Source of the DNA: Eledone cirrhosa
Taxonomy: Eukaryota
Length of the DNA: 42,145 nucleotides
NCBI GenBank assembly: GCA_964016885.1
Contig: CAXHJY010000477.1
Coordinates: 1-42,145 of the forward strand
Direction of reading: 5' to 3'
Shown here in pieces: positions 9,336-38,389 of the stretch. The first letter of the stretch is position 1. Every line of letters begins with the position of its first letter. The notes under the pieces were generated by a model. It had not been told where the DNA came from. It saw nothing but the letters and a program-made list of their open reading frames with translations, and ran no database searches. Made by a program: the position numbers and the translations under genes.

Positions 9336-9697
9336 GCAGACACACATACACACACATAAACCCACGCACACACGCGCACTTATACGTATATATATGTATA
9401 TATAAAAACAAATAACGAAACGAAATTAAATTTCGTTTCGTTTGTAACTCACTTTTGTATGACTGACGCTTAAACAATTAAGTTAAAGATGTACATCCAT
9501 ATATGTATACTGAAATACTAGTATGTATATGAATACACACACGTATACATATGTAGATGTACCAAGTTTTTTCACTGGTCACTTTACTGTGAGTGGCCAG
9601 CTATTCTGTATGTAAACACACAGACAAACCGGTTTTTAGAGTCATACTGGTTTTTGAGGAAACACCTTTCCTCTATTCCCCAGAAAGCCAGACAAGG

Positions 9698-9742
9698 AAT
9701 ATTGAACTAGTTTCGTTGTTGTTACAACTCATCAGCAATATT
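9698..9742 (-). ncRNA. Minimal type I hammerhead ribozyme (first of 27, repeating every 467 bp)
   Basis: AAUAUUG-CUGAUGA-GUUGU aaca ACAAC-GAAA-CUAG-UU^CAAUAUU: 7-bp stem I, 5-bp stem II, palindromic AACUAGUU stem III, GUU cleavage triplet. Confidence 0.88.
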
Positions 9743-9827
9743 TACCTATCTTCCGGCCTCTCTAGAGAATCGTAAAAGCACATATCGTTATATGCTTTTT
9801 CTATGATAATTAGTAGTGGGCAGACTA

Positions 9828-9835
9828 ATTTGCAT
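9828..9835 (-). promoter_or_regulatory. Octamer motif ATGCAAAT ~85 nt upstream of the HHR in each unit
   Basis: Perfect octamer in nearly all units (mutated near 12633); also at 22287 and in a related element at 30331. Confidence 0.45.
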
Positions 9836-12800
9836 AGAGTGTGAGTAAGTACCGGTTCAACGGAGACGATAAAAACAAATAACGAAACGAAATTAAATTT
9901 CGTTTCGTTTGTAACTCACTTTTGTATGACTGACGCTTAAACAATTAAGTTAAAGATGTACATCCATATATGTATACTGAAATACTAGTATGTATATGAA
10001 TACACACACGTATACATATGTAGATGTACCAAGTTTTTTCACTGGTCACTTTACTGTGAGTGGCCAGCTATTCTGTATGTAAACACACAGACAAACCGGT
10101 TTTTAGAGTCATACTGGTTTTTGAGGAAACACCTTTCCTCTATTCCCCAGAAAGCCAGACAAGGAATATTGAACTAGTTTCGTTGTTGTTACAACTCATC
10201 AGCAATATTTACCTATCTTCCGGCCTCTCTAGAGAATCGTAAAAGCACATATCGTTATATGCTTTTTCTATGATAATTAGTAGTGGGCAGACTAATTTGC
10301 ATAGAGTGTGAGTAAGTACCGGTTCAACGGAGACGATAAAAACAAATAACGAAACGAAATTAAATTTCGTTTCGTTTGTAATTCACTTTTGTATGACTGA
10401 CGCTTAAACAATTAAGTTAAAGATGTACATCCATATATGTATACTGAAATACTAGTATGTATATGAATACACACACGTATACATATGTAGATGTACCAAG
10501 TTTTTTCACTGGTCACTTTACTGTGAGTGGCCAGCTATTCTGTATGTAAACACACAGACAAACCGGTTTTTAGAGTCATACTGGTTTTTGAGGAAACACC
10601 TTTCCTCTATTCCCCAGAAAGCCAGACAAGGAATATTGAACTAGTTTCGTTGTTGTTACAACTCATCAGCAATATTTACCTATCTTCCGGCCTCTCTAGA
10701 GAATCGTAAAAGCACATATCGTTATATGCTTTTTCTATGATAATTAGTAGTGGGCAGACTAATTTGCATAGAGTGTGAGTAAGTACCGGTTCAACGGAGA
10801 CGATAAAAACAAATAACGAAACGAAATTAAATTTCGTTTCGTTTGTAACTCACTTTTGTATGACTGACGCTTAAACAATTAAGTTAAAGATGTACATCCA
10901 TATATGTATACTGAAATACTAGTATGTATATGAATACACACACGTATACATATGTAGATGTACCAAGTTTTTTCACTGGTCACTTTACTGTGAGTGGCCA
11001 GCTATTCTGTATGTAAACACAGACAAACCGGTTTTTAGAGTCATACTGGTTTTTGAGGAAACACCTTTCCTCTATTCCCCAGAAAGCCAGACAAGGAATA
11101 TTGAACTAGTTTCGTTGTTGTTACAACTCATCAGCAATATTTACCTATCTTCCGGCCTCTCTAGAGAATCGTAAAAGCACATATCGTTATATGCTTTTTC
11201 TATGATAATTAGTAGTGGGCAGACTAATTTGCATAGAGTGTGAGTAAGTACCGGTTCAACGGAGACGATAAAAACAAATAACGAAACGAAATTAAATTTC
11301 GTTTCGTTTGTAACTCACTTTTGTATGACTGACGCTTAAACAATTAAGTTAAAGATGTACATCCATATATGTATACTGAAATACTAGTATGTATATGAAT
11401 ACACACACGTATACATATGTAGATGTACCAAGTTTTTTCACTGGTCACTTTACTGTGAGTGGCCAGCTATTCTGTATGTAAACACACAGACAAACCGGTT
11501 TTTGGAGTCATACTGGTTTTTGAGGAAACACCTTTCCTCTATTCCCCAGAAAGCCAGACAAGGAATATTGAACTAGTTTCGTTGTTGTTACAACTCATCA
11601 GCAATATTTACCTATCTTACGGCCTCTCTAGAGAATCGTAAAAGCACATATCGTTATATGCTTTTTCTATGATAATTAGTAGTGGGCAGACCAATTTGCA
11701 TAGAGTGTGAGTAAGTACCGGTTCAACGGAGACGATAAAAACAAATAACGAAACGAAATTAAATTTCGTTTCGTTTGTAACTCACTTTTGTATGACTGAC
11801 GCTTAAACAATTAAGTTAAAGATGTACATCCATATATGTATACTGAAATACTAGTATGTATATGAATACACACACGTATACATATGTAGATGTACCAAGT
11901 TTTTTCACTGGTCACTTTACTGTGAGTGGCCAGCTATTCTGTATGTAAACACACAGACAAACCGGTTTTTGGAGTCATACTGGTTTTTGAGGAAACACCT
12001 TTCCTCTATTCCCCAGAAAGCCAGACAAGGAATATTGAACTAGTTTCGTTGTTGTTACAACTCATCAGCAATATTTACCTATCTTCCGGCCTCTCTAGAG
12101 AATCGTAAAAGCACATATCGTTATATGCTTTTTCTATGATAATTAGTAGTGGGCAGACTAATTTGCATAGAGTGTGAGTAAGTACCGGTTCAACGGAGAC
12201 GATAAAAACAAATAACGAAACGAAATTAAATTTCGTTTCGTTTGTAATTCACTTTTGTATGACTGACGCTTAAACAATTAAGTTAAAGATGTACATCCAT
12301 ATATGTATACTGAAATACTAGTATGTATATGAATACACACACGTATACATATGTAGATGTACCAAGTTTTTTCACTGGTCACTTTACTGTGAGTGGCCAG
12401 CTATTCTGTATGTAAACACACAGACAAACCGGTTTTTAGAGTCATACTGGTTTTTGAGGAAACACCTTTCCTCTATTCACCAGACAGCCAGACAAGGAAT
12501 ATTGAACTAGTTTCGTTGTTGTTACAACTCATCAGCAATATTTACCTATCTTCCGGCCTCTCTAGAGAATCGTAAAAGCACATATCGTTATATGCTTTTT
12601 CTATGATAATTAGTAGTGGGCAGACTAATTTGTATAGAGTGTGAGTAAGTACCGGTTCAACGGAGACGATAAAAACAAATAACGAAACGAAATTAAATTT
12701 CGTTTCGTTTGTAACTCACTTTTGTATGACTGACGCTTAAACAATTAAGTTAAAGATGTACATCCATATATGTATACTGAAATACTAGTATGTATATGAA

Positions 12801-15800
12801 TACACACACGTATACATATGTAGATGTACCAAGTTTTTTCACTGGTCACTTTACTGTGAGTGGCCAGCTATTCTGTATGTAAACACACAGACAAACCTGT
12901 TTTTAGAGTCATACTGGTTTTTGAGGAAACACCTTTCCTCTATTCTCCAGAAAGCCAGACAAGGAATATTGAACTAGTTTCGTTGTTGTTACAACTCATC
13001 AGCAATATTTACCTATCTTCCGGCCTCTCTAGAGAATCGTAAAAGCACATATCGTTATATGCTTTTTCTATGATAATTAGTAGTGGGCAGACTAATTTGC
13101 ATAGAGTGTGAGTAAGTACCGGTTCAACGGAGACGATAAAAACAAATAACGAAACGAAATTAAATTTCGTTTCGTTTGTAACTCACTTTTGTATGACTGA
13201 CGCTTAAACAATTAAGTTAAAGATGTACATCCATATATGTATACTGAAATACTAGTATGTATATGAATACACACACGTATACATATGTAGATGTACCAAG
13301 TTTTTTCACTGGTCACTTTACTGTGAGTGGCCAGCTATTCTGTATGTAAACACACAGACAAACCGGTTTTTAAAGTCATACTGGTTTTTGAGGAAACACC
13401 TTTCCTCTATTCTCCAGAAAGCCAGACAAGGAATATTGAACTAGTTTCGTAGTTGTTACAACTCATCAGCAATATTTACCTATCTTCCGGCCTCTCTAGA
13501 GAATCGTAAAAGCACATATCGTTATATGCTTTTTCTATGATAATTAGTAGTGGGCAGACTAATTTGCATAGAGTGTGAGTAAGTACCGGTTCAACGGAGA
13601 CGATAAAAACAAATAACGAAACGAAATTAAATTTCGTTTCGTTTGTAACTCACTTTTGTATGACTGACGCTTAAACAATTAAGTTAAAGATGTACATCCA
13701 TATATGTATACTGAAATACTAGTATGTATATGAATACACACACGTATACATATGTAGATGTACCAAGTTTTTTCACTGGTCACTTTACTGTGAGTGGCCA
13801 GCTATTCTGTATGTAAACACACAGACAAACCGGTTTTTGGAGTCATACTGGTTTTTGAGGAAACACCTTTCCTCTATTCTCCAGAAAGCCAGACAAGGAA
13901 TATTGAACTAGTTTCGTTGTTGTTACAACTCATCAGCAATATTTACCTATCTTCCGGCCTCTCTAGAGAATCGTAAAAGCACATATCGTTATATGCTTTT
14001 TCTATGATAATTAGTAGTGGGCAGACTAATTTGCATAGAGTGTGAGTAAGTACCGGTTCAACGGAGACGATAAAAACAAATAACGAAACGAAATTAAATT
14101 TCGTTTCGTTTGTAACTCACTTTTGTATGACTGACGCTTAAACAATTAAGTTAAAGATGTACATCCATATATGTATACTGAAATACTAGTATGTATATGA
14201 ATACACACACGTATACATATGTAGATGTACCAAGTTTTTTCACTGGTCACTTTACTGTGAGTGGCCAGCTATTCTGTATGTAAACACACAGACAAACCGG
14301 TTTTTGGAGTCATACTGGTTTTTGAGGAAACACCTTTCCTCTATTCTCCAGAAAGCCAGACAAGGAATATTGAACTAGTTTCGTTGTTGTTACAACTCAT
14401 CAGCAATATTTACCTATCTTCCGGCCTCTCTAGAGAATCGTAAAAGCACATATCGTTATATGCTTTTTCTATGATAATTAGTAGTGGGCAGACTAATTTG
14501 CATAGAGTGTGAGTAAGTACCGGTTCAACGGAGACGATAAAAACAAATAACGAAACGAAATTAAATTTCGTTTCGTTTGTAACTCACTTTTGTATGACTG
14601 ACGCTTAAACAATTAAGTTAAAGATGTACATCCATATATGTATACTGAAATACTAGTATGTATATGAATACACACACGTATACATATGTAGATGTACCAA
14701 GTTTTTTCACTGGTCACTTTACTGTGAGTGGCCAGCTATTCTGTATGTAAACACACAGACAAACCGGTTTTTAGAATCATACTGGTTTTTGAGGAAACAC
14801 CTTTCCTCTATTCTCCACAAAGCCAGACAAGGAATATTGAACTAGTTTCGTTGTTGTTACAACTCATCAGCAATATTTACCTATCTTCCGGCCTCTCTAG
14901 AGAATCGTAAAAGCACATATCGTTATATGCTTTTTCTATGATAATTAGTAGTGGGCAGACTAATTTGCATAGAGTGTGAGTAAGTACCGGTTCAACGGAG
15001 ACGATAAAAACAAATAACGAAACGAAATTAAATTTCGTTTCGTTTGTAACTCACTTTTGTATGACTGACGCTTAAACAATTAAGTTAAAGATGTACATCC
15101 ATATATGTATACTGAAATACTAGTATGTATATGAATACACACACGTATACATATGTAGATGTACCAAGTTTTTTCACTGGTCACTTTACTGTGAGTGGCC
15201 AGCTATTCTGTATGTAAACACACAGACAAACCGGTTTTTGGAGTCATACTGGTTTTTGAGGAAACACCTTTCCTCTATTCCCCAAAAAGCCAGACAAGGA
15301 ATATTGAACTAGTTTCGTTGTTGTTACAACTCATCAGCAATATTTACCTATCTTCCGGCCTCTCTAGAGAATCGTAAAAGCACATATCGTTATATGCTTT
15401 TTCTATGATAATTAGTAGTGGGCAGACTAATTTGCATAGAGTGTGAGTAAGTACCGGTTCAACGGAGACGATAAAAACAAATAACGAAACGAAATTAAAT
15501 TTCGTTTCGTTTGTAACTCACTTTTGTATGACTGACGCTTAAACAATTAAGTTAAAGATGTACATCCATATATGTATACTGAAATACTAGTATGTATATG
15601 AATACACACACGTATACATATGTAGAAGTACCAAGTTTTTTCACTGGTCACTTTACTGTGAGTGGCCAGCTATTCTGTATGTAAACACACAGACAAACCG
15701 GTTTTTAGAGTCATACTGGTTTTTGAGGAAACACCTTTCCTCTATTCCCCAGAAAGCCAGACAAGGAATATTGAACTAGTTTCGTTGTTGTTACAACTCA

Positions 15801-18800
15801 TCAGCAATATTTACCTATCTTCCGGCCTCTCTAGAGAATCGTAAAAGCACATATCGTTATATGCTTTTTCTATGATAATTAGTAGTGGGCAGACTAATTT
15901 GCATAGAGTGTGAGTAAGTACCGGTTCAACGGAGACGATAAAAACAAATAACGAAACGAAATTAAATTTCGTTTCGTTTGTAACTCACTTTTGTATGACT
16001 GACGCTTAAACAATTAAGTTAAAGATGTACATCCATATATGTATACTGAAATACTAGTATGTATATGAATACACACACGTATACATATGTAGATGTACCA
16101 AGTTTTTTCACTGGTCACTTTACTGTGAGTGGCCAGCTATTCTGTATGTAAACACACAGACAAACCGGTTTTTGGAGTCATACTGGTTTTTGAGGAAACA
16201 CCTTTCCTCTATTCTCCAGAAAGCCAGACAAGGAATATTGAACTAGTTTCGTTGTTGTTACAACTCATCAGCAATATTTACCTATCTTCCGGCCTCTCTA
16301 GAGAATCGTAAAAGCACATATCGTTATATGCTTTTTCTATGATAATTAGTAGTGGGCAGACTAATTTGCATAGAGTGTGAGTAAGTACCGGTTCAACGGA
16401 GACGATAAAAACAAATAACGAAACGAAATTAAATTTCGTTTCGTTTGTAACTCACTTTTGTATGACTGACGCTTAAACAATTAAGTTAAAGATGTACATC
16501 CATATATGTATACTGAAATACTAGTATGTATATGAATACACACACGTATACATATGTAGATGTACCAAGTTTTTTCACTGGTCACTTTACTGTGAGTGGC
16601 CAGCTATTCTGTATGTAAACACACAGACAAACCGGTTTTTAGAATCATACTGGTTTTTGAGGAAACACCTTTCCTCTATTCTCCACAAAGCCAGACAAGG
16701 AATATTGAACTAGTTTCGTTGTTGTTACAACTCATCAGCAATATTTACCTATCTTCCGGCCTCTCTAGAGAATCGTAAAAGCACATATCGTTATATGCTT
16801 TTTCTATGATAATTAGTAGTGGGCAGACTAATTTGCATAGAGTGTGAGTAAGTACCGGTTCAACGGAGACGATAAAAACAAATAACGAAACGAAATTAAA
16901 TTTCGTTTCGTTTGTAACTCACTTTTGTATGACTGACGCTTAAACAATTAAGTTAAAGATGTACATCCATATATGTATACTGAAATACTAGTATGTATAT
17001 GAATACACACACGTATACATATGTAGATGTACCAAGTTTTTTCACTGGTCACTTTACTGTGAGTGGCCAGCTATTCTGTATGTAAACACACAGACAAACC
17101 GGTTTTTGGAGTCATACTGGTTTTTGAGGAAACACCTTTCCTCTATTCCCCAAAAAGCCAGACAAGGAATATTGAACTAGTTTCGTTGTTGTTACAACTC
17201 ATCAGCAATATTTACCTATCTTCCGGCCTCTCTAGAGAATCGTAAAAGCACATATCGTTATATGCTTTTTCTATGATAATTAGTAGTGGGCAGACTAATT
17301 TGCATAGAGTGTGAGTAAGTACCGGTTCAACGGAGACGATAAAAACAAATAACGAAACGAAATTAAATTTCGTTTCGTTTGTAACTCACTTTTGTATGAC
17401 TGACGCTTAAACAATTAAGTTAAAGATGTACATCCATATATGTATACTGAAATACTAGTATGTATATGAATACACACACGTATACATATGTAGAAGTACC
17501 AAGTTTTTTCACTGGTCACTTTACTGTGAGTGGCCAGCTATTCTGTATGTAAACACACAGACAAACCGGTTTTTAGAGTCATACTGGTTTTTGAGGAAAC
17601 ACCTTTCCTCTATTCCCCAGAAAGCCAGACAAGGAATATTGAACTAGTTTCGTTGTTGTTACAACTCATCAGCAATATTTACCTATCTTCCGGCCTCTCT
17701 AGAGAATCGTAAAAGCACATATCGTTATATGCTTTTTCTATGATAATTAGTAGTGGGCAGACTAATTTGCATAGAGTGTGAGTAAGTACCGGTTCAACGG
17801 AGACGATAAAAACAAATAACGAAACGAAATTAAATTTCGTTTCGTTTGTAACTCACTTTTGTATGACTGACGCTTAAACAATTAAGTTAAAGATGTACAT
17901 CCATATATGTATACTGAAATACTAGTATGTATATGAATACACACACGTATACATATGTAGATGTACCAAGTTTTTTCACTGGTCACTTTACTGTGAGTGG
18001 CCAGCTATTCTGTATGTAAACACACAGACAAACCGGTTTTTGGAGTCATACTGGTTTTTGAGGAAACACCTTTCCTCTATTCCCCAGAAAGCCAGACAAG
18101 GAATATTGAACTAGTTTCGTTGTTGTTACAACTCATCAGCAATATTTACCTATCTTCCGGCCTCTCTAGAGAATCGTAAAAGCACATATCGTTATATGCT
18201 TTTTCTATGATAATTAGTAGTGGGCAGACTAATTTGCATAGAGTGTGAGTAAGTACCGGTTCAACGGAGACGATAAAAACAAATAACGAAACGAAATTAA
18301 ATTTCGTTTCGTTTGTAACTCACTTTTGTATGACTGACGCTTAAACAATTAAGTTAAAGATGTACATCCATATATGTATACTGAAATACTAGTATGTATA
18401 TGAATACACACACGTATACATATGTAGATGTACCAAGTTTTTTCACTGGTCACTTTACTGTGAGTGGCCAGCTATTCTGTATGTAAACACACAGACAAAC
18501 CGGTTTTTAGAGTCATACTGGTTTTTGAGGAAACACCTTTCCTCTATTCTCCAGAAAGCCAGACAAGGAATATTGAACTAGTTTCGTTGTTGTTACAACT
18601 CATCAGCAATATTTACCTATCTTCCGGCCTCTCTAGAGAATCGTAAAAGCACATATCGTTATATGCTTTTTCTATGATAATTAGTAGTGGGCAGACTAAT
18701 TTGCATAGAGTGTGAGTAAGTACCGGTTCAACGGAGACGATAAAAACAAATAACGAAACGAAATTAAATTTCGTTTCGTTTGTAACTCACTTTTGTATGA

Positions 18801-21800
18801 CTGACGCTTAAACAATTAAGTTAAAGATGTACATCCATATATGTATACTGAAATACTAGTATGTATATGAATACACACACGTATACATATGTAGATGTAC
18901 CAAGTTTTTTCACTGGTCACTTTACTGTGAGTGGCCAGCTATTCTGTATGTAAACACACAGACAAACCGGTTTTTAGAGTCATACTGGTTTTTGAGGAAA
19001 CACCTTTCCTCTATTCTCCAGAAAGCCAGACAAGGAATATTGAACTAGTTTCGTTGTTGTTACAACTCATCAGCAATATTTACCTATCTTCCGGCCTCTC
19101 TAGAGAATCGTAAAAGCACATATCGTTATATGCTTTTTCTATGATAATTAGTAGTGGGCAGACTAATTTGCATAGAGTGTGAGTAAGTACCGGTTCAACG
19201 GAGACGATAAAAACAAATAACGAAACGAAATTAAATTTCGTTTCGTTTGTAACTCACTTTTGTATGACTGACGCTTAAACAATTAAGTTAAAGATGTACA
19301 TCCATATATGTATACTGAAATACTAGTATGTATATGAATACACACACGTATACATATGTAGATGTACCAAGTTTTTTCACTGGTCACTTTACTGTGAGTG
19401 GCCAGCTATTCTGTATGTAAACACACAGACAAACCGGTTTTTGGAGTCATACTGGTTTTTGAGGAAACACCTTTCCTCTATTCCCCAGAAAGCCAGACAA
19501 GGAATATTGAACTAGTTTCGTTGTTGTTACAACTCATCAGCAATATTTACCTATCCTCCGGCCTCTCTAGAGAATCGTAAAAGCACATATCGTTATATGC
19601 TTTTTCTATGATAATTAGTAGTGGGCAGACTAATTTGCATAGAGTGTGAGTAAGTACCGGTTCAACGGAGACGATAAAAACAAATAACGAAACGAAATTA
19701 AATTTCGTTTCGTTTGTAACTCACTTTTGTATGACTGACGCTTAAACAATTAAGTTAAAGATGTACATCCATATATGTATACTGAAATACTAGTATGTAT
19801 ATGAATACACACACGTATACATATGTAGATGTACCAAGTTTTTTCACTGGTCACTTTACTGTGAGTGGCCAGCTATTCTGTATGTAAACACACAGACAAA
19901 CCGGTTTTTGGAGTCATACTGGTTTTTGAGGAAACACCTTTCCTCTATTCTCCAGAAAGCCAGACAAGGAATATTGAACTAGTTTCGTTGTTGTTACAAC
20001 TCATCAGCAATATTTACCTATCCTCCGGCCTCTCTAGAGAATCGTAAAAGCACATATCGTTATATGCTTTTTCTATGATAATTAGTAGTGGGCAGACTAA
20101 TTTGCATAGAGTGTGAGTAAGTACCGGTTCAACGGAGACGATAAAAACAAATAACGAAACGAAATTAAATTTCGTTTCGTTTGTAACTCACTTTTGTATG
20201 ACTGACGCTTAAACAATTAAGTTAAAGATGTACATCCATATATGTATACTGAAATACTAGTATGTATATGAATACACACACGTATACATATGTAGATGTA
20301 CCAAGTTTTTTCACTGGTCACTTTACTGTGAGTGGCCAGCTATTCTGTATGTAAACACACAGACAAACCGGTTTTTAGAGTCATACTGGTTTTTGAGGAA
20401 ACACCTTTCCTCTATTCTCCAGAAAGCCAGACAAGGAATATTGAACTAGTTTCGTTGTTGTTACAACTCATCAGCAATATTTACCTATCTTCCGGCCTCT
20501 CTAGAGAATCGTAAAAGCACATATCGTTATATGCTTTTTCTATGATAATTAGTAGTGGGCAGACTAATTTGCATAGAGTGTGAGTAAGTACCGGTTCAAC
20601 GGAGACGATAAAAACAAATAACGAAACGAAATTAAATTTCGTTTCGTTTGTAACTCACTTTTGTATGACTGACGCTTAAACAATTAAGTTAAAGATGTAC
20701 ATCCATATATGTATACTGAAATACTAGTATGTATATGAATACACACACGTATACATATGTAGATGTACCAAGTTTTTTCACTGGTCACTTTACTGTGAGT
20801 GGCCAGCTATTCTGTATGTAAACACACAGACAAACCGGTTTTTGGAGTCATACTGGTTTTTGAGGAAACACCTTTCCTCTATTCCCCAGAAAGCCAGACA
20901 AGGAATATTGAACTAGTTTCGTTGTTGTTACAACTCATCAGCAATATTTACCTATCTTCCGGCCTCTCTAGAGAATCGTAAAAGCACATATCGTTATATG
21001 CTTTTTCTATGATAATTAGTAGTGGGCAGACTAATTTGCATAGAGTGTGAGTAAGTACCGGTTCAACGGAGACGATAAAGACAAATAACGAAACGAAATT
21101 AAATTTCGTTTCGTTTGTAACTCACTTTTGTATGACTGACGCTTAAACAATTAAGTTAAAGATGTACATCCATATATGTATACTGAAATACTAGTATGTA
21201 TATGAATACACACACGTATACATATGTAGATGTACCAAGTTTTTTCACTGGTCACTTCACTGTGAGTGGCCAGCTATTCTGTATGTAAACACACAGACAA
21301 ACCGGTTTTTAGAGTCATACTGGTTTTTGAGGAAACACCTTTCCTCTATTCTCCACAAAGCCAGACAAGGAATATTGAACTAGTTTCGTTGTTGTTACAA
21401 CTCATCAGCAATATTTACCTATCTTCCGGCCTCTCTAGAGAATCGTAAAAGCACATATCGTTATATGCTTTTTCTATGATAATTAGTAGTGGGCAGACTA
21501 ATTTGCATAGAGTGTGAGTAAGTACCGGTTCAACGGAGACGATAAAAACAAATAACGAAACGAAATTAAATTTCGTTTCGTTTGTAACTCACTTTTGTAT
21601 GACTGACGCTTAAACAATTAAGTTAAAGATGTACATCCATATATGTATACTGAAATACTAGTATGTATATGAATACACACACGTATACATATGTAGATGT
21701 ACCAAGTTTTTTCACTGGTCACTTTACTGTGAGTGGCCAGCTATTCTGTATGTAAACACACAGACAAACCGGTTTTTGGAGTCATACTGGTTTTTGAGGA

Positions 21801-22379
21801 AACACCTTTCCTCTATTCCCCAGAAAGCCAGACAAGGAATATTGAACTAGTTTCGTTGTTGTTACAACTCATCAGCAATATTTACCTATCTTCCGGCCTC
21901 TCTAGAGAATCGTAAAAGCACATATCGTTATATGCTTTTTCTATGATAATTAGTAGTGGGCAGACTAATTTGCATAGAGTGTGAGTAAGTACCGGTTCAA
22001 CGGAGACGATAAAAACAAATAACGAAACGAAATTAAATTTCGTTTGTAACTCACTTTTGTATGACTGACGCTTAAACAATTAAGTTAAAGATGTACATCC
22101 ATATATGTATACTGAAATACTAGTATGTACATACTAGTATTTCAGTATACATATATGGATGTACATCTTTAACTTAATTGTTTAAGCGTCAGTTATACAA
22201 AAGTGAGTTACAAACGAAACGAAATTTAATTTCGTTTCGTTATTTGTTTTTATCGTCTCCGTTGAACCGGTACTTACTCACACTCTATGCAAATTAGTCT
22301 GCCCACTACTAATTATCATAGAAAAAGCATATAACGATATGTGCTTTTACGATTCTCTAGAGAGGCCGGAAGATAGGTA

Positions 22380-22424
22380 AATATTGCTGATGAGTTGTAA
22401 CAACAACGAAACTAGTTCAATATT
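22380..22424 (+). ncRNA. Minimal type I hammerhead ribozyme
   Basis: Same motif as in the array, on the + strand. Confidence 0.88.
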
Positions 22425-22846
22425 CCTTGTCTGGCTTTCTGGGGAATAGAGGAAAGGTGTTTCCTCAAAAACCAGTATGACTCTAAAAACCGGTTTGTCT
22501 GTGTGTTTACATACAGAATAGCTGGCCACTCACAGTAAAGTGACCAGTGAAAAAACTTGGTACATCTACATATGTATACGTGTGTGTATTCATATACATA
22601 CTAGTATTTCAGTATACATATATGGATGTACATCTTTAACTTAATTGTTTAGGCGTCAGTCATAGAAAAGTGAGTTACAAACGAAACGAAATTTAATTTC
22701 GTTTCGTTATTTGTTTTTATCGTCTCCGTTGAACCGGTACTTACTCACACTCTATGCAAATTAGTCTGCCCACTACTAATTATCATAGAAAAAGCATATA
22801 ACGATATGTGCTTTTACGATTCTCTAGAGAGGCCGGAAGATAGGTA

Positions 22847-22891
22847 AATATTGCTGATGAGTTGTAACAACAACGAAACTAGTTCAATATT
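22847..22891 (+). ncRNA. Minimal type I hammerhead ribozyme
   Basis: Same motif as in the array, on the + strand. Confidence 0.88.
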
Positions 22892-23120
22892 CCTTGTCTG
22901 GCTTTCTGGGGAATAGAGGAAAGGTGTTTCCTCAAAAACCAGTATGACTCTAAAAACCGGTTTGTCTGTGTGTTTACATACAGAATAGCTGGCCACTCAC
23001 AGTAAAGTGACCAGTGAAAAGACTTGGTACATCTACATATGTATACGTGTGTGTATTCATATACATACTAGTATTTCAGTATACATATATGGATGTACAT
23101 CTTTAACTTAATTGTTTATG

Positions 23121-23237
<117 letters not shown>

Positions 23238-23304
23238 GTGTGTGTGTATGTATATATTTATATACACTGTTATATATATATATATATATATATAACAGTA
23301 TATA

Positions 23305-23363
<59 letters not shown>

Positions 23364-23426
23364 CAGTATATATATATGTATATATATATATATATGCATA
23401 CAGACACACACACACATATATATATA

Positions 23427-24165: not shown

Positions 24166-24167
<2 letters not shown>

Positions 24168-25477
24168 GGAAGGACACATCCAACACTTCATCAACCGCAT
24201 GCAGTTCTCTGGCTACAACCAAAGAGACAGAGTCAGAGTATACGAAGGAGCCATGGAAAAGTATAAGACCCTCATAGAACTGGACATGAAAGGAATTTGC
24301 CCACTATACAGGAGCAAATCATGGAATAGCTTAGATAGGGCTAGACATAAGATAGGGAAGGCCACATCATGGTACGACAACCAGAGATATCAGAGTGTCA
24401 TGTTTGTGGACGCCACCCCTGGAGGGAAATTAGCTAACCAGTGTAGAAAGGCCCTGAGAAAGACCCACTTAAAAATAAAGGTGGTAGAAAAGCCAGGAAC
24501 CACCATAAAATCCCTGATCAGCAAAACCTACCCTTTTAAGAAAACCCACTGTACCAATAGGAAATGTATCATATGTAAGGTGAACCCCCGGATAAACTGT
24601 AAAACTAGAAACGTAGTCTATAGCATAAGATGTACAGAGGGTACTTGCAGAAACACGACAACAACATACATAGGTGAGACAGCTCGTAGCATAGGTGAAA
24701 GGATAGACCAACACTGGGGGGAACTAAAAGGACGAAAAAACGGGTCAGTACTATATGAACATGCTAGACAACATCATGACGGTAACATAGACAACATAGA
24801 AATTAGAATAATATCTAAACATAGGAATGACCCAGCAGATAGGCAAATCAGAGAGGCCAGTGAAATAGAAATTAGAAGACCAAAGCTAAACAGAAAGAAT
24901 GAGTGGAACAACAACAACACCCAAACAAACAACACTGACCTAAGAGAAGTATAAATAAATAAGTAAATTAAATTAAATAAAATAAGATAAATAAATACAT
25001 ACACAAGCACATAAACACACACTAGTCACCCAGCAGACACAACACTATACACACTAGTCACACATCACACATAACACTATACACACACGCAAACGCATGC
25101 GCAAAGAAGGCAAAATAAAATAAGATAAACAAACAAGCAAATAAATAAATAAATATATAGACAGACTGAACAAAAAAAAAATGGCGTAGACATACAACAC
25201 AACAGGAGGAACAATGAATATAACACCACTGACGATGTTGCAGATGTGCAACGAAAGATTTATGTAAACTATATATATATGTGTTTGTCTATATTGTATC
25301 TGTATTATTTTTGACCGCCGGTCAGTCAATGGCAACATTGAGGACCGAGTAAGTTAGATCGCAGATATATATATATAAAAGACAGCGAGAAGCGAAAACC
25401 AACCAAACAGTGAGTGTGTTCTGTTATTAATTCTGGCAATATTACGCAAATATGACCCTCCCCAAATATAACAATAT
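24166..25477 (+). repeat. 5' pseudo-LTR (ORF 3' end, UTR and first 9 codons)
   Basis: Direct repeat of 28296-29607; its 264-aa ORF equals the C-terminus of the main ORF. Confidence 0.9.
25223..25265 (+). ncRNA. Hammerhead-like motif in the pLTR
   Basis: CUGACGA-u-GUUGCA gaug UGCAAC-GAAA-GAUU-UA; core and stem II good, stem I only ~2 bp. Confidence 0.6.
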
Positions 25478-28400
25478 CTGTTTCGACACACGATTTCATA
25501 TAAAAAACCTCGCAAAACTAATTCATCGCCGCTATGGCATTAGCTTGTGCCAAGCTGAAAGGTTATTGAAAGACACTGTTTTCTGTTATATAAAAACTAC
25601 AATAACAACAGAACAAATCCGCTTCTTAAAACACTGTGTTTCCTCCAAAACATACACAACAAACATATCAAAACAAGTAAATAATTTATTATTGAACAAA
25701 ACACAAGCTGAACGGCTAAAACACACAATAACAGTTAATATGAAAAGAACAACATACACAAAAGTCAACGCACTCTACAGACAAAAACGCATCAACGGTA
25801 AGGAAATCCGAAATCTCATCACAGCAAACGAGAGAGATGACTTCATGAGCGTCATCCGACGCGAAACGAAATATGCTCAAAACGAATGCTGTAGGCATTT
25901 CAAGAAGAAATTAGAATGGATGAATAAGAAAAAACTACAAGAAAGGAAAATCGAATATTCTCAAAAATACCCAGATAACATCGACAACATCCGTATGAGT
26001 GATGTAAGACTACCGGAAGAATTTACCAATGACCACACAGTAAATATCTATGGGAACACTTTAATCAGTGAACAAGAACAACAAATCCTAAAGTTACCAC
26101 CAAAATTTGCCATCTACAAAAAGATTAATCCTATGGAATGCAAAACGGAGCTGGAAAAGTGTTTCACAAAAATACGTTGGAATGCAAAGGTAAACAACAA
26201 CAACAATAATAACGGTAGTAGTAATATAAACAATAACTCTGGGTATAGAAATAACAGCCATAACCATAACAATGGCAGGAAAGTGAGAAATAGTGATAAT
26301 GGTAATAATACTAGCGATAGACAGAACAACAACAACCACAATAATAATAATAATAGAAACGTTAACCACAGACACAGCAACAGTGACCACAGTAGTAATA
26401 ACGGTAACAATACGAACAACAACAACAACAATAACCACAGTGGTAATAATGGAAATAGTACATGTAGCAACATCAACAAAAACAAGAAACATAATAATAG
26501 TAACAACCACAATGGTAGAAATAGCAGTAACAACAACAACAATAACGGTGAAGTAAACAACAATACATCTAGCAATCATAACAATAATAATATTAATGCT
26601 AAGGATAGAAACAACAACAACCACCATGATAACAATAATAGCAACACACACAACTATGACGATAGAAATAACGACAACCCCTTAGAGAAACTATTTTTCA
26701 ACCCAGCTGACAAAACATATAAGATGGGTAATATCTATCCTACGAGGTTACCCTTTAATAAAAGAGTTTGCATACCACAACAAATAGATGACGAGACGGA
26801 GGCACAGTTCACCATAGCTAGAAATAAGATTAGACAAGTAGTAGACAGGTACACTATGAGACAGAGCAGACCAGAGGCCCAACAACTTGGGATAAAACCT
26901 GTAGAAGGCTTGGTTAGCCTCAAGCAGCGCACAAGGGATGGTGAGGTAGTGTGTCTACCCACAGATAAGTCTGGTAGGATGTCAATAGATAGCATGCCGA
27001 ACTACATCGAGGCAATGCAACCCCACATCACCAACACGAGCGAAGTTGCACAACTAACACACGATGGGAGAGAAAAAATCCTCAACGCTCACATGATGAT
27101 GTGGACTGACATCCTAAAGCCAAGCAGACGCACTGCCAACAACTTCCAGGCGTCTAACAATGGCATACCACCCTTGTATGGGCTCCGCAAAGACCACAAG
27201 ACTGTCGACGACCCGACAATAGGACCACCAACAAGACCTGTATGCGGAGCTAATATAGCTAGCAACTACAGGATCTCCTACTTCCTCTCAATGGTTATAC
27301 GCCCCATAATCAAGATGTCCCCAGATGTATGTGAAAGTACAGAGGACCTCCTCAGCAGAATCAGTGAGTGCAACAAAAACAGGAGCCTATCCAACTGCAT
27401 AATAGGCAGCATGGATGTGGTGTCACTGTACCCATCCATTAACATTGATTTTGCTGTGAAAAGATGTGTGGAGATGATCATTGAGAGTGAGGTGGAGTTC
27501 TGCGACGTCGACACAGACGAACTGGGCCTCCTACTTAGACTTACCTACGACACTGACTACCTAGACAGCCATGACCTTAGATGTTTCTGCCCTAGTAGAC
27601 CTATAAGAGGTAGACCCCCCACCATAACCTCAATGGCTAAAAAGACTCCCATAGGAAGGTGGATTGGGTGGACCAAAGCTATACGGACCCCCCAAAACAC
27701 TGATCAGGTAAGAAAAATGGTCGCACATGCAATAGGGGCTAGTATCAAAACTACCCTAAAGGGCCACATATTTAAGTTCAATGAGAAAATCTACACCCAA
27801 AATGAGGGAGCAGCCATCGGCGTCAGCATAGCTGGCGATGTTGCCAACCTTTTCATGGTATGGTGGGAAAGGAGACTTAAAGATCTCCTTAATGAAAGCT
27901 CCATAGACCTCATCATGTACTCTCGTTATGTAGACGATATCAATATAGTTATAAGAACACCCCCACTAGAGAGCACTAACAAGTTTGATTTAGAACGTAG
28001 CACGATGGAAAGCATCCAGCAGATAGCTAATTCCATACACCAGAGTATAACTGTAACTATAGACTTCCCTTCCAAACACCCTAACAATAGACTACCTGTA
28101 TTAGACACAGAACTCTGGATCAACACTATAGACGAGAGAGCCCAAATTCTCCACTCACACTATGCTAAACCCATGGCCTCCAAATACCTGATACTCAAAA
28201 ACTCAGCAATGTCCAGTAGTGCTAAGTTTAATATTCTGATCGCAGATTTGGTACGAGTGATGAAGAATGTGTCCAGCATGTGCGACCCAACAGAAATGGA
28301 AGGACACATCCAACACTTCATCAACCGCATGCAGTTCTCTGGCTACAACCAAAGAGACAGAGTCAGAGTATACGAAGGAGCCATGGAAAAGTATAAGACC

Positions 28401-29084
28401 CTCATAGAACTGGACATGAAAGGAATTTGCCCACTATACAGGAGCAAATCATGGAATAGCTTAGATAGGGCTAGACATAAGATAGGGAAGGCCACATCAT
28501 GGTACGACAACCAGAGATATCAGAGTGTCATGTTTGTGGACGCCACCCCTGGAGGGAAATTAGCTAACCAGTGTAGAAAGGCCCTGAGAAAGACCCACTT
28601 AAAAATAAAGGTGGTAGAAAAGCCAGGAACCACCATAAAATCCCTGATCAGCAAAACCTACCCTTTTAAGAAAACCCACTGTACCAATAGGAAATGTATC
28701 ATATGTAAGGTGAACCCCCGGATAAACTGTAAAACTAGAAACGTAGTCTATAGCATAAGATGTACAGAGGGTACTTGCAGAAACACGACAACAACATACA
28801 TAGGTGAGACAGCTCGTAGCATAGGTGAAAGGATAGACCAACACTGGGGGGAACTAAAAGGACGAAAAAACGGGTCAGTACTATATGAACATGCTAGACA
28901 ACATCATGACGGTAACATAGACAACATAGAAATTAGAATAATATCTAAACATAGGAATGACCCAGCAGATAGGCAAATCAGAGAGGCCAGTGAAATAGAA
29001 ATTAGAAGACCAAAGCTAAACAGAAAGAATGAGTGGAACAACAACAACACCCAAACAAACAACACTGACCTAAGAGAAGTATAA
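25452..29084 (+). CDS. PLE polyprotein: Asn-rich N-terminal insert, reverse transcriptase, Cys-rich linker, GIY-YIG endonuclease (1210 aa)
   Basis: TDKSG; LYGLRKDHK; RPVC; SMDVVSLYPSI; GAAIG; YSRYVDD; LPVLDT; [10 protein letters not shown]...C; VVYSIRC....C.....YIGET...IGERIDQH; EHARQHH; RQIREA...PKLN. Confidence 0.95.
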   Translation: MTLPKYNNICFDTRFHIKNLAKLIHRRYGISLCQAERLLKDTVFCYIKTTITTEQIRFLKHCVSSKTYTTNISKQVNNLLLNKTQAERLKHTITVNMKRTTYTKVNALYRQKRINGKEIRNLITANERDDFMSVIRRETKYAQNECCRHFKKKLEWMNKKKLQERKIEYSQKYPDNIDNIRMSDVRLPEEFTNDHTVNIYGNTLISEQEQQILKLPPKFAIYKKINPMECKTELEKCFTKIRWNAKVNNNNNNNGSSNINNNSGYRNNSHNHNNGRKVRNSDNGNNTSDRQNNNNHNNNNNRNVNHRHSNSDHSSNNGNNTNNNNNNNHSGNNGNSTCSNINKNKKHNNSNNHNGRNSSNNNNNNGEVNNNTSSNHNNNNINAKDRNNNNHHDNNNSNTHNYDDRNNDNPLEKLFFNPADKTYKMGNIYPTRLPFNKRVCIPQQIDDETEAQFTIARNKIRQVVDRYTMRQSRPEAQQLGIKPVEGLVSLKQRTRDGEVVCLPTDKSGRMSIDSMPNYIEAMQPHITNTSEVAQLTHDGREKILNAHMMMWTDILKPSRRTANNFQASNNGIPPLYGLRKDHKTVDDPTIGPPTRPVCGANIASNYRISYFLSMVIRPIIKMSPDVCESTEDLLSRISECNKNRSLSNCIIGSMDVVSLYPSINIDFAVKRCVEMIIESEVEFCDVDTDELGLLLRLTYDTDYLDSHDLRCFCPSRPIRGRPPTITSMAKKTPIGRWIGWTKAIRTPQNTDQVRKMVAHAIGASIKTTLKGHIFKFNEKIYTQNEGAAIGVSIAGDVANLFMVWWERRLKDLLNESSIDLIMYSRYVDDINIVIRTPPLESTNKFDLERSTMESIQQIANSIHQSITVTIDFPSKHPNNRLPVLDTELWINTIDERAQILHSHYAKPMASKYLILKNSAMSSSAKFNILIADLVRVMKNVSSMCDPTEMEGHIQHFINRMQFSGYNQRDRVRVYEGAMEKYKTLIELDMKGICPLYRSKSWNSLDRARHKIGKATSWYDNQRYQSVMFVDATPGGKLANQCRKALRKTHLKIKVVEKPGTTIKSLISKTYPFKKTHCTNRKCIICKVNPRINCKTRNVVYSIRCTEGTCRNTTTTYIGETARSIGERIDQHWGELKGRKNGSVLYEHARQHHDGNIDNIEIRIISKHRNDPADRQIREASEIEIRRPKLNRKNEWNNNNTQTNNTDLREV

Positions 29085-29352
29085 ATAAATAAGTAAATTA
29101 AATTAAATAAAATAAGATAAATAAATACATACACAAGCACATAAACACACACTAGTCACCCAGCAGACACAACACTATACACACTAGTCACACATCACAC
29201 ATAACACTATACACACACGCAAACGCATGCGCAAAGAAGGCAAAATAAAATAAGATAAACAAACAAGCAAATAAATAAATAAATATATAGACAGACTGAA
29301 CAAAAAAAAAATGGCGTAGACATACAACACAACAGGAGGAACAATGAATATA

Positions 29353-29395
29353 ACACCACTGACGATGTTGCAGATGTGCAACGAAAGATTTATGT
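29353..29395 (+). ncRNA. Hammerhead-like motif in the 3' pLTR
   Basis: Identical to 25223-25265. Confidence 0.6.
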
Positions 29396-29599
29396 AAACT
29401 ATATATATATGTGTTTGTCTATATTGTATCTGTATTATTTTTGACCGCCGGTCAGTCAATGGCAACATTGAGGACCGAGTAAGTTAGATCGCAGATATAT
29501 ATATATAAAAGACAGCGAGAAGCGAAAACCAACCAAACAGTGAGTGTGTTCTGTTATTAATTCTGGCAATATTACGCAAATATGACCCTCCCCAAATAT

Positions 29600-29677
<78 letters not shown>

Positions 29678-34492: not shown

Positions 34493-34548
<56 letters not shown>

Positions 34549-34565
34549 GCACATACAAACACACA

Positions 34566-34975
34566 CAAAGGGCAAAGGAGTTCTTAAGAGTCAATGGCCA
34601 TCCAAAATCACCGGGAGAGATGACCCCTTAGCCTTTGTCAAGGCAGAATTCTAGGAGAAGGAAAACTCTGATATAACACCTGCAACCCTGATGGTATCCA
34701 ATGATGTTGACTTGTTCTTCTTTTTGGTAAATATCATCTTGGTTAAGAGAGTGCGACTGGCTTTGTGCAGTGCTTTTGCTCACTATAAAAGCTTCACGGC
34801 ACAGGCATTGCTTTATATCTGGAGATCTCTCTGCACTTGTCGTCTCATGGTACCATGGGCCCAGCACTATGTGTCAATAACTGTCACAAGTGTAGTGTTT
34901 GTACCAGAGTTTTCAAGTCGCTGGCTGGACTAAAAATTCACACTCGTTCAGCGCATCGGTAGGGGTTGGCAGCCA
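34566..34975 (+). mobile_element. Non-autonomous RTE-like short element, 5'-truncated copy
   Basis: Near-identical to 40175-40570; ends in a degenerate C2H2 coding remnant. Confidence 0.6.
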
Positions 34976-35039
<64 letters not shown>

Positions 35040-35305
35040 CGGCGATGAATTAGTTTTGCGAGGTTTTTTATATGAAATCGTGTGTCGAAACAGATATTGT
35101 TATATTTGGGGAGGGTCATATTTGCGTAATATTGCCAGAATTAATAACAGAACACACTCACTGTTTGGTTGGTTTTCGCTTCTCGCTGTCTTTTATATAT
35201 ATATATCTGCGATCTAACTTACTCGGTCCTCAATGTTGCCATTGACTGACCGGCGGTCAAAAATAATACAGATACAATATAGACAAACACATATATATAT
35301 AGTTT

Positions 35306-35348
35306 ACATAAATCTTTCGTTGCACATCTGCAACATCGTCAGTGGTGT
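35306..35348 (-). ncRNA. Hammerhead-like motif in the pLTR of copy 2
   Basis: Reverse complement of 25223-25265. Confidence 0.6.
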
Positions 35349-35615
35349 TATATTCATTGTTCCTCCTGTTGTGTTGTATGTCTACGCCATTTTTTTTTGT
35401 TCAGTCTGTCTATATATTTATTTAATTATTTGCTTGTTTGTTTATCTTATTTTATTTTGTCTTCTTTGCGCATGCGTTTGCGTGTGTGTATAGTGTTATG
35501 TGTGATGTGTGACTAGTGTGTATAGTGTTGTGTCTGCTGGGTGACTAGTGTGTGTTTATGTGCTTGTGTATGTATTTATTTATCTTATTTTATTTAATTT
35601 AATTTACTTATTTAT

Positions 35616-37976
35616 TTATACTTCTCTTAGGTCAGTGTTGTTTGTTTGGGTGTTGTTGTTGTTCCACTCATTCTTTCTGTTTAGCTTTGGTCTTCTAATT
35701 TCTATTTCACTGGCCTCTCTGATTTGCCTATCTGCTGGGTCATTCCTATGTTTAGATATTATTCTAATTTCTATGTTGTCTATGTTACCGTCATGATGTT
35801 GTCTAGCATGTTCGTATAGTACTGACCCGTTTTTTCGTCCTTTTAGTTCCCCCCAGTGTTGGTCTATCCTTTCACCTATGCTACGAGCTGTCTCACCTAT
35901 GTATGTTGTTGTCGTGTTTCTGCAAGTACCCTCTGTACATCTTATGCTATAGACTACGTTTCTAGTTTTACAGTTTATCCGGGGGTTCACCTTACATATG
36001 ATACATTTCCTATTGGTACAGTGGGTTTTCTTAAAAGGGTAGGTTTTGCTGATCAGGGATTTTATGGTGGTTCCTGGCTTTTCTACCACCTTTATTTTTA
36101 AGTGGGTCTTTCTCAGGGCCTTTCTACACTGGTTAGCTAATTTCCCTCCAGGGGTGGCGTCCACAAACATGACACTCTGATATCTCTGGTTGTCGTACCA
36201 TGATGTGGCCTTCCCTATCTTATGTCTAGCCCTATCTAAGCTATTCCATGATTTGCTCCTGTATAGTGGGCAAATTCCTTTCATGTCCAGTTCTATGAGG
36301 GTCTTATACTTTTCCATGGCTCCTTCGTATACTCTGACTCTGTCTCTTTGGTTGTAGCCAGAGAACTGCATGCGGTTGATGAAGTGTTGGATGTGTCCTT
36401 CCATTTCTGTTGGGTCGCACATGCTGGACACATTCTTCATCACTCGTACCAAATCTGCGATCAGAATATTAAACTTAGCACTACTGGACATTGCTGAGTT
36501 TTTGAGTATCAGGTATTTGGAGGCCATGGGTTTAGCATAGTGTGAGTGGAGAATTTGGGCTCTCTCGTCTATAGTGTTGATCCAGAGTTCTGTGTCTAAT
36601 ACAGGTAGTCTATTGTTAGGGTGTTTGGAAGGGAAGTCTATAGTTACAGTTATACTCTGGTGTATGGAATTAGCTATCTGCTGGATGCTTTCCATCGTGC
36701 TACGTTCTAAATCAAACTTGTTAGTGCTCTCTAGTGGGGGTGTTCTTATAACTATATTGATATCGTCTACATAACGAGAGTACATGATGAGGTCTATGGA
36801 GCTTTCATTAAGGAGATCTTTAAGTCTCCTTTCCCACCATACCATGAAAAGGTTGGCAACATCGCCAGCTATGCTGACGCCGATGGCTGCTCCCTCATTT
36901 TGGGTGTAGATTTTCTCATTGAACTTAAATATGTGGCCCTTTAGGGTAGTTTTGATACTAGCCCCTATTGCATGTGCGACCATTTTTCTTACCTGATCAG
37001 TGTTTTGGGGGGTCCGTATAGCTTTGGTCCACCCAATCCACCTTCCTATGGGAGTCTTTTTAGCCATTGAGGTTATGGTGGGGGGTCTACCTCTTATAGG
37101 TCTACTAGGGCAGAAACATCTAAGGTCATGGCTGTCTAGGTAGTCAGTGTCGTAGGTAAGTCTAAGTAGGAGGCCCAGTTCGTCTGTGTCGACGTCGCAG
37201 AACTCCACCTCACTCTCAATGATCATCTCCACACATCTTTTCACAGCAAAATCAATGTTAATGGATGGGTACAGTGACACCACATCCATGCTGCCTATTA
37301 TGCAGTTGGATAGGCTCCTGTTTTTGTTGCACTCACTGATTCTGCTGAGGAGGTCCTCTGTACTTTCACATACATCTGGGGACATCTTGATTATGGGGCG
37401 TATAACCATTGAGAGGAAGTAGGATATCCTGTAGTTGCTAGCTATATTAGCTCCGCATACAGGTCTTGTTGGTGGTCCTATTGTCGGGTCGTCGACTGTC
37501 TTGTGGTCTTTGCGGAGCCCATACAAGGGTGGTATGCCATTGTTAGACGCCTGGAAGTTGTTGGCAGTGCGTCTGCTTGGCTTTAGGATGTCAGTCCACA
37601 TCATCATGTGAGCGTTGAGGATTTTTTCTCTCCCATCGTGTGTTAGTTGTGCAACTTCGCTCGTGTTGGTGATGTGGGGTTGCATTGCCTCGATGTAGTT
37701 CGGCATGCTATCTATTGACATCCTACCAGACTTATCTGTGGGTAGACACACTACCTCACCATCCCTTGTGCGCTGCTTGAGGCTAACCAAGCCTTCTACA
37801 GGTTTTATCCCAAGTTGTTGGGCCTCTGGTCTGCTCTGTCTCATAGTGTACCTGTCTACTACTTGTCTAATCTTATTTCTAGCTATGGTGAACTGTGCCT
37901 CCGTCTCGTCATCTATTTGTTGTGGTATGCAAACTCTTTTATTAAAGGGTAACCTCGTAGGATAGATATTACCCAT
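35616..37976 (-). CDS. Truncated PLE ORF (786 aa, RT plus GIY-YIG, lacks N-terminus)
   Basis: Protein appears identical to the C-terminal 786 aa of 25452..29084; lacks native start and promoter. Confidence 0.7.
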   Translation of the reverse strand: MGNIYPTRLPFNKRVCIPQQIDDETEAQFTIARNKIRQVVDRYTMRQSRPEAQQLGIKPVEGLVSLKQRTRDGEVVCLPTDKSGRMSIDSMPNYIEAMQPHITNTSEVAQLTHDGREKILNAHMMMWTDILKPSRRTANNFQASNNGIPPLYGLRKDHKTVDDPTIGPPTRPVCGANIASNYRISYFLSMVIRPIIKMSPDVCESTEDLLSRISECNKNRSLSNCIIGSMDVVSLYPSINIDFAVKRCVEMIIESEVEFCDVDTDELGLLLRLTYDTDYLDSHDLRCFCPSRPIRGRPPTITSMAKKTPIGRWIGWTKAIRTPQNTDQVRKMVAHAIGASIKTTLKGHIFKFNEKIYTQNEGAAIGVSIAGDVANLFMVWWERRLKDLLNESSIDLIMYSRYVDDINIVIRTPPLESTNKFDLERSTMESIQQIANSIHQSITVTIDFPSKHPNNRLPVLDTELWINTIDERAQILHSHYAKPMASKYLILKNSAMSSSAKFNILIADLVRVMKNVSSMCDPTEMEGHIQHFINRMQFSGYNQRDRVRVYEGAMEKYKTLIELDMKGICPLYRSKSWNSLDRARHKIGKATSWYDNQRYQSVMFVDATPGGKLANQCRKALRKTHLKIKVVEKPGTTIKSLISKTYPFKKTHCTNRKCIICKVNPRINCKTRNVVYSIRCTEGTCRNTTTTYIGETARSIGERIDQHWGELKGRKNGSVLYEHARQHHDGNIDNIEIRIISKHRNDPADRQIREASEIEIRRPKLNRKNEWNNNNTQTNNTDLREV

Positions 37977-38389
37977 CTTATATGTTTTGTCAGCTGTGCA
38001 ACGAAAGATTTATGTAAACTATATATATATGTGTTTGTCTATATTGTATCTGTATTATTTTTGACCGCCGGTCAGTCAATGGCAACATTGAGGACCGAGT
38101 AAGTTAGATCGCAGATATATATATATAAAAGACAGCGAGAAGCGAAAACCAACCAAACAGTGAGTGTGTTCTGTTATTAATTCTGGCAATATTACGCAAA
38201 TATGACCCTCCCCAAATATAACAATATATATATATATATATATAAGTATTAAATTGTTAAACAATATTCAATGAATTATGTCAAAGAATGATTTTTACAG
38301 TAGATTGGAAGAACTCAACGAAAAAATAATTTTCAGGAGTTATTAATATAAATATTAATAAGATAGATGTTCTTTTGATCAATTACATT

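Follow-up and report, generated by a model that had tools for sequence, protein, structure and literature searches.

The window, a stretch of 42,145 nucleotides that makes up an entire 42-kb contig (CAXHJY010000477.1) of the 3.0-Gb Eledone cirrhosa assembly GCA_964016885.1, holds a two-armed array of a 467-bp repeat and two copies of a Penelope-like element (PLE). The features of both are listed below; A and B are the two end sites of the array unit, 1 and 2 those of the PLE.

9387..9401: short, imperfect (TA)n tract flanking the 3' end of the left array arm, read from the sequence
9402..22129, minus strand: left arm of the array, comprising 27.3 units of 467 bp and having its 3' end at site A (unit position 467/468)
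22128..22129: 5'-5' head-to-head junction of the two arms, a 2-nt overlap in a short palindrome of the unit
22128..23118, plus strand: right arm of the array, comprising 2.1 units and having its 3' end at site B (unit position 399)
22369..22440, plus strand: type I hammerhead motif, one per unit, with its core CTGATGA at 22387, a 2-bp palindromic helix III and a predicted cut after 22417
22652..22720, plus strand: tail, the ~70 nt between end sites B and A of one unit, containing a 13-bp hairpin
23119..23395: (TA)n tract flanking the 3' end of the right arm
24166..29607, plus strand: PLE copy 1, uninverted, a full unit preceded in tandem by a partial copy that lacks its 5' part (24166-25477); its 3' end lies in (TA)n at PLE site 1
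25431..29084, plus strand: intact PLE ORF, 1217 aa stop to stop, with RT, CX4CxxC linker and C-terminal GIY-YIG with CCHH
25478..25535, plus strand: PLE tail, between site 1 (25477) and site 2 (25520/25535)
35036..37996, minus strand: long arm of PLE copy 2, 3' end at site 2 in (TA)n 34978-35038
37995..38227, plus strand: inverted short arm of PLE copy 2, 3' end at site 1 in (TA)n

The ribozyme lay on the minus strand in the left arm and on the plus strand in the right arm. Read in ribozyme sense, both array 3' ends pointed outward into TA, the left one as ...TTTTTAT/ATATA at 9402 (TA overlap of 3 nt) and the right one as ...TTGTTTA/TGTATA at 23118 (overlap of 2 nt). The array layout given in the original prediction (ends at 9402 and 23118, junction at 22128/9, outward 3' ends) was confirmed in the sequence, as was its geometry for PLE copy 2, with (TA)n 3' ends at 35036 and 38227 and an inversion at 37995/6. 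The two arms of the array were not mirror copies: they differed by 7 substitutions and one 5-nt indel, which argues against a fold-back read artefact. Along the 27 units of the left arm a 4-unit variant pattern recurred, which suggests later tandem duplication. An older inverted relative of the unit was also present in the window, at ~29970-30735.

The unit had a GC content of 36%, and the array was free of any ORF of 100 aa. A motif scan found a type I hammerhead in each tandem unit. Positions 22369-22440 matched Rfam Hammerhead_HH9 with 37.7 bits (E 1.9e-6), under the gathering score of 52, and at the gathering threshold Rfam returned no match in the window; many Rfam miRNA matches at the E-value threshold were set aside as microsatellite noise. 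One unit folded much better than shuffled sequence (z -9.5), and no terminal direct repeats were seen at the mapped array ends. A shared ATGCAAAT octamer was considered as a possible snRNA-type promoter, as in newt satellite 2, a role for which a literature search gave no supporting paper. The unit length slightly exceeded the range given by Cervera and de la Pena 2020 (150-450 bp; PMC7229834) and lay inside that of Li, Clavereau and Pollet 2026 (51-972 bp; preprint, 10.64898/2026.07.22.740005). As judged from these sequence features, the 467-bp unit is a non-LTR retrozyme with a predicted type I hammerhead. It shares with the metazoan non-LTR retrozymes, as these are presented in the available text of PMC7229834 and 10.64898/2026.07.22.740005, the non-coding tandem arrangement, one type I hammerhead per unit, a strongly folded monomer, a dispersed distribution and the presence of PLEs in the genome.

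In the assembly, the 37 best-scoring of 212 array candidates were resolved into 33 loci (32 and the window) with 34 insertions, a selection skewed to young, full-unit copies; the counts leave out the end of L037, which was not reached, and a 19-nt filler at the junction of L053. Array 3' ends abutted (TA)n in 59 of the 63 visible cases, 58 of them directly and one (L039) after passing into a related family, while the four ends without TA were the short arm of L031, both ends of L056 and one end of L062. The same TA rule held at 44,298 of 558,936 positions (7.9%) in 28 arbitrary 10-kb stretches, and a stricter rule at 5.6% in arbitrary stretches and 13.5% in the flanks of the arrays themselves. 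The original prediction had named two outcomes at other array loci that would speak against it, a lack of TA enrichment and ends of TIR, TSD or Helitron type; put to the test, the loci displayed the enrichment just given, and a non-TA TSD was visible in L056 only.

Two opposed arms were present in 30 of the 34 insertions, two of these having arms of just 16-21 nt. The inversion joint of L041 fell at almost the same unit position as the window junction. Microhomology of 1-5 nt occurred at 18 of the 30 joints, a count that lacks a chance comparison and carries no weight here. Locus L045 lies in a threefold segmental repeat; its filled copy joins the TA tract at site B, with ~110 bp absent on the 5' side, and the two empty copies hold the tract, so that the tract was the target and not an added tail, at L045 at least. 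In ribozyme sense, 3' ends were fixed and 5' ends were scattered across the unit; 6 of 64 5' ends lay in unit positions 164-180 (2.3 expected, p 0.03), a weak test given that the range was picked post hoc and the pairs are non-independent. Related copies behaved alike: in family B (472 bp, related hammerhead, 91 candidates) TA ends were seen at two homologous sites, viewed in 19 of 30 loci without formal count, and L276, an older array copy (87% identity) outside the selected set, had one arm ending at A and one at B (A/B layout).

The 3' ends were confined to site B (unit positions 391-399) and site A (464-468), ~70 nt apart (69-77 nt). All 58 family-A TA ends fell within these 14 of the 467 unit positions. 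As the unit contains longer TA-alternating runs outside the two sites, the longest of 6 nt at position 371, microhomology alone does not pick the site. Insertions with both ends in TA were A/B in 24 of 25 cases, B/B in one and A/A in none (binomial p 8e-7 against independent site use). The PLE behaved in the same manner. Its site 1 corresponded to 25477/29607 and its site 2 to 25520 or 25535, giving tails of 43 and 58 nt, and 15 of 16 inverted PLE insertions used site 1 and site 2, one each (p 3e-4); this count was made by eye, and the one exception, L148, has its junction in common with L149 and does not count as independent. No structure common to the array and PLE start sites was found. The two-site, one-per-arm tail rule common to array and PLE is the discriminating signature, one that the original prediction does not mention, and it is the published PLE 'tail', shown for the Poseidon element PAc to span the stretch from one internal RT start site to the other (Frangieh et al. 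2024, PMC11167929).

TA flanks and inversion were shared with a control, a short, non-PLE-like element of ~700 bp (34600-34977 in the window; 1,437 candidates in the genome). Its copies were flanked by TA in 16 of 29 cases and by TATG in 11 (27 of 29 together), had one fixed 3' end in 29 of 29, and included an inverted copy (L260) with both arms ending at the same site. In this genome, a TA target with inversion is therefore not specific to PLEs. The original prediction had proposed mobilisation in trans by a TA-targeting PLE from three features, the (TA)n target, the 5' inversion and the two outward 3' ends with TA microhomology; this remains the best reading, but the three features are weaker support than was claimed. 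The control element has a LINE-like C2H2 tail; its identification as an RTE LINE was dropped after no RT was found upstream.

The CX4CxxC linker, CCHH and GIY-YIG of the PLE ORF were read off its translation. Pfam returned no match on the whole ORF, RVT_1 reached E 1.6e-4 (below cut-off), and the Pfam GIY-YIG model did not match the window protein and matched the homologue P0068 at no better than E 0.099; a PDB sequence search gave weak RT matches only. The linker, CTNRKCIIC, fits the CX2-5CxxC definition (PMC8557442) and precedes the C-terminal EN, and the window copies display a pLTR from partial tandems, an inverted arm and a tail, the features of EN+ PLEs. By the definitions of PMC8557442, applied to motifs alone, the window PLE would be of Neptune/Nematis type; Naiad was ruled out, the EN being C-terminal rather than N-terminal. 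The closest named protein was from Octopus vulgaris (68% identity).

A full-length query at 35% identity led to the window PLE family in 30 of 30 fetched loci (96-99.7%). Matches of this family were free of stops in 38 of 43 cases, in a ranking that favours intact frames, and the family covered the same age range as the arrays. From its sequences, it is the youngest intact PLE candidate seen, Naiad, Hydra and Poseidon lying outside the survey. For PLE ends, a short pLTR DNA query gave no candidates and an EN query was used instead. A further, EN-only query led to a sister family (EN identity 54-73%, mostly short frames), which ends in TA at two sites and has a hammerhead-like motif that is unrelated. 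As the sister family is also TA-ended at two sites, the signature names no family, and the caution of the original prediction, that the mobilising PLE family cannot be told from this window, stands.

The sequences of the arms bear on the template. Both arms were identical at 26 subfamily-informative sites in 20 of 25 insertions; arm pairs formed between loci were identical in 100 of 676 cases (15%). Four of the remaining five insertions, the window included, differed at one site, and L055 differed at 6 of 11. Ten locus-private variants, spread over 8 loci, were fixed in all the units that cover them in either arm; a further two were found in only some units of both arms. The shared arm haplotypes point to one RNA template for both arms, and the fixed private variants favour a single-unit template, with the reservation that a homogeneous unsampled source array would look alike. 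Many arms were longer than one unit and passed the predicted cut site, so that the template would be circular, or an uncut multimer, or else the RT jumped from one cut monomer to the next. In the three longest arrays (window, L034, L037) variant patterns of 2-4 units recurred, and the 27-unit arm is thus no evidence of a single 12-kb RT pass.

Two insertions had arms stemming from clearly different RNAs, and both had B/B ends: L055 displayed two haplotypes, and L039 switched from family A to family B at a 10-nt shared stretch. A tie of B/B ends to two-RNA events may be suspected from these sequences, as a lead only (n = 2). RNA-editing scars were unsupported, locus-private A>G numbering 17 versus 10 T>C (p 0.18), with G>A versus C>T equally skewed (18 versus 7); a larger excess in a separate count, 60 versus 20, included shared ancestry repeatedly.

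Taken as a whole, the array is a hammerhead retrozyme, very probably written in trans by a Penelope-like RT/GIY-YIG that targets (TA)n. Probably acting as a dimer, the enzyme would nick both strands of a (TA)n tract, and each 3'-OH would prime on the same RNA, through a TA overlap of 1-3 nt, at one or the other of two internal sites separated by ~70 nt. Both cDNAs would run through the ribozyme cut site, so that the template would be a circle, to which we give about an even chance, or an uncut multimer, which we rate only a little lower. Repair would then join the two cDNAs 5'-to-5', and the longest arms, the 27-unit arm included, were likely lengthened later by tandem duplication. Frangieh 2024 (PMC11167929) describes an enzyme that cuts and extends both strands, with a predicted dimer, and that starts at RNA sites lacking homology to the cleaved DNA; the 1-3-nt TA overlap hence need not be functional. 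Among the observations that go against the PLE reading are the 4 of 63 ends outside TA, the LINE-like L056 and the TA flanks shared by the control. The PLE family of the window itself is the likeliest source of the enzyme, an attribution that we hold slightly more probable than its opposite. Tail lengths speak against this partner, being 69-77 nt in the array and 43 or 58 nt in the PLE, as do the lack of a common structure at the start sites and the lack of significant similarity between the unit and the pLTR/UTR DNA of the window PLE (best E 0.04, AT-rich).

The best-surviving alternative concerns the origin of the unit, which could be the detached pLTR of an unsampled PLE family and a non-autonomous derivative of that family, following the model of Li 2026 (10.64898/2026.07.22.740005). 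In the available text of that preprint, 24 of 57 Xenopus retrozyme families were homologous to Repbase TEs, 21 of 22 such TEs being PLEs, and the genome studied here contains ~29,000-36,000 PLE-like candidates, of which a few dozen were examined. Against such a derivation, none of the 30 EN loci of the sister family had a unit-like pLTR and their hammerhead-like motifs were of another type; the L276 unit that adjoins a PLE proved a separate TA-bounded insertion. No PLE-retrozyme fusion naming a family was found in the loci examined. A detached pLTR seems unlikely, if not far-fetched; it is compatible with writing in trans by a PLE and differs just in origin and partner.

Insertions made by L1-type twin priming have segments that abut, a single template 3' end, a TSD, and a 5' inversion with microhomology at the junction. 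A LINE (RTE/L1-like) moving the RNA through ordinary TPRT with twin priming would account for L056, which has an 11-bp direct repeat at both ends, no TA, arms abutting in template coordinates and a 3' end precisely at the predicted ribozyme cut (unit position 165), an indirect pointer to RNA self-cleavage. From its sequence, L056 fits a LINE-type twin-primed event. The short control element with its LINE-like tail also ends in TA/TATG, and Cervera 2020 (PMC7229834), in its available text, names LINEs as a possible partner. However, TSD, single template 3' end and abutting segments came together in L056 alone, 1 of 34 insertions. Most of the others had arms overlapping in template coordinates and outer ends at two fixed internal sites, with no non-TA TSD visible (a TSD within (TA)n being undetectable), and the control element had a single fixed 3' end throughout. 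A LINE route for the arrays is thereby very improbable.

Spread at the DNA level, by a rolling-circle or Helitron-like satellite, eccDNA or break repair at fragile TA tracts, would draw on the commonness of TA tracts (7.9% background) and on the 2-4-unit patterns of long arms, which show that DNA-level duplication does act; yet the ends are strand-polar, fixed at 3' and scattered at 5', and DNA capture explains neither the A/B rule nor its match in the PLE, which renders this route extremely improbable. That the assembly created the array, as a fold-back chimera in a contig that is small and unplaced, is scarcely credible: the junction is indeed a spacer-less palindrome on a contig of 42 kb, but the arms differ in sequence, 29 further two-armed insertions lie mostly on chromosome-scale contigs with varied junctions, and contigs of run X1 (possibly the source sample) showed TA loose ends at site A.

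The idea that PLEs mobilise retrozymes was put forward on the basis of co-occurrence in Cervera and de la Pena 2020 (PMC7229834) and of pLTR homology in the 2026 preprint (10.64898/2026.07.22.740005). Unlike in these two sources, the evidence for writing in trans by a PLE consists here of junction geometry, with no pLTR homology found and TSDs exceptional. The word 'inverted' occurs 0 times and once (in a reference) in the respective main texts, and 'tail' and 'junction' 0 times in the preprint. A literature search found no junction evidence for PLE mobilisation of retrozymes, subscription papers and supplements, including Cervera Fig. S9, lying outside it. The element kind and its proposed partner were already known; new here are the countable insertion evidence and the exact predictions.

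According to the available text of Craig et al. 2021 (PMC8557442), EN+ PLEs often have a tail at one end only, of 30-40 bp, microsatellite targeting is linked to the CX2-5CxxC linker, and the reason for the inversion and the one-end tail is listed as open. The arrays resemble EN+ PLEs as these are described there and in PMC11167929, with an inverted 5'-truncated arm, a one-end tail, two internal starts, a microsatellite target and partial tandems. They differ in that the array encodes nothing and has a tail of ~70 nt against the 30-40 bp described; the window PLE tails, at 43 and 58 nt, also differ from that figure. Unlike for EN+ PLEs, the one-site-per-arm rule was counted here for a trans substrate, and it bears on the point listed as open in Craig 2021.

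The enzyme that mobilises animal hammerhead repeats was thus proposed in 2020 and 2026 and not shown from insertions in the literature searched, insofar as its available text goes. The retrozyme at this locus and the adjoining PLE, whose ORF is intact, are both young and obey the same countable end rule. The proposed route is now directly testable, and its interpretation is better grounded than in the original prediction: base-level predictions (starts at A and B, one per strand) fit an assay format that exists for PAc. More tentatively, and with somewhat less than an even chance, a PLE dimer could capture one circular ribozyme RNA that is non-homologous to its pLTR, two RTs starting from structure-defined sites ~70 nt apart and running round the circle from both strands of the (TA)n cut. 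If so, paired initiation on a single RNA would have left the tail and inversion of PLEs as its footprint, and retrozymes would be circular-RNA parasites in their own right, having evolved a mimic of the PLE loading site. The two B/B events would then be exceptions that involved two RNAs, in one case through a template switch from one retrozyme family to another.

Noted elsewhere in the same genome were two array loci with family A (467-bp) units:
L056:2385-3399 (contig G000:C3:279919885-279920899), retrozyme insertion
L039:2894-5386, two-family insertion

The exceptional L056 insertion was bounded by an 11-bp TSD and had flanks without TA; its arms abutted, and its 3' end lay exactly at the predicted hammerhead cut. 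This structure fits LINE-type twin priming on a cut multimer as template, and the position of the 3' end hints, at the sequence level, at cutting by the ribozyme in vivo. At L039, family A passed into the related 472-bp hammerhead family B within one arm, through a 10-nt stretch common to both, and both outer ends were B-type (at site B, one of the two fixed 3' end positions of arms).

Several further elements and motifs were located in the window:
22288-22295, octamer ATGCAAAT, in every unit
23425-23942, non-coding element with inverted ends
25229-25280, hammerhead-like motif of the window PLE itself
26180-26680, low-complexity, asparagine-rich insert (~165 aa) in the PLE ORF, ahead of RT
29970-30735, older insertion of a related hammerhead family, inverted
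33880-34360 and 38520-38670, remnants of sister-family PLE pLTRs
34600-34977 and 40264-40569, ~700-bp non-autonomous element
38380-38440 (minus), separate hammerhead-like motif, core at 38432

The octamer was kept in families A and B; by analogy, we take it to be a possible snRNA-type promoter element, a role for which a literature search found no supporting paper. In the older insertion, one hammerhead motif lay on the minus strand at 30260 and another on the plus strand at 30419, each outer end lying in TA. The element at 23425-23942, with 128-bp inverted ends 97.7% alike and TA-like sequence at either side, is possibly a further two-armed insertion. The ~700-bp element (1,437 candidates) displayed a C2H2 zinc-finger remnant and a single fixed 3' end, with TA/TATG flanking.

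The sister-family remnants harbored a minimal hammerhead-like motif and identical site-1 sequence. The window PLE motif, with a good helix II and a weak helix I, failed the hammerhead motif scan and may be degenerate. Full-length PLE frames differed in length from copy to copy. The separate minus-strand motif sits shortly past PLE copy 2.

Near-identical units (compared with window 22000-23200) were found in contigs of three other labelled organisms (sequencing runs X4, X5, X6), one contig piece of 497 nt showing 8 differences; the 467-bp family is thus present beyond this assembly.
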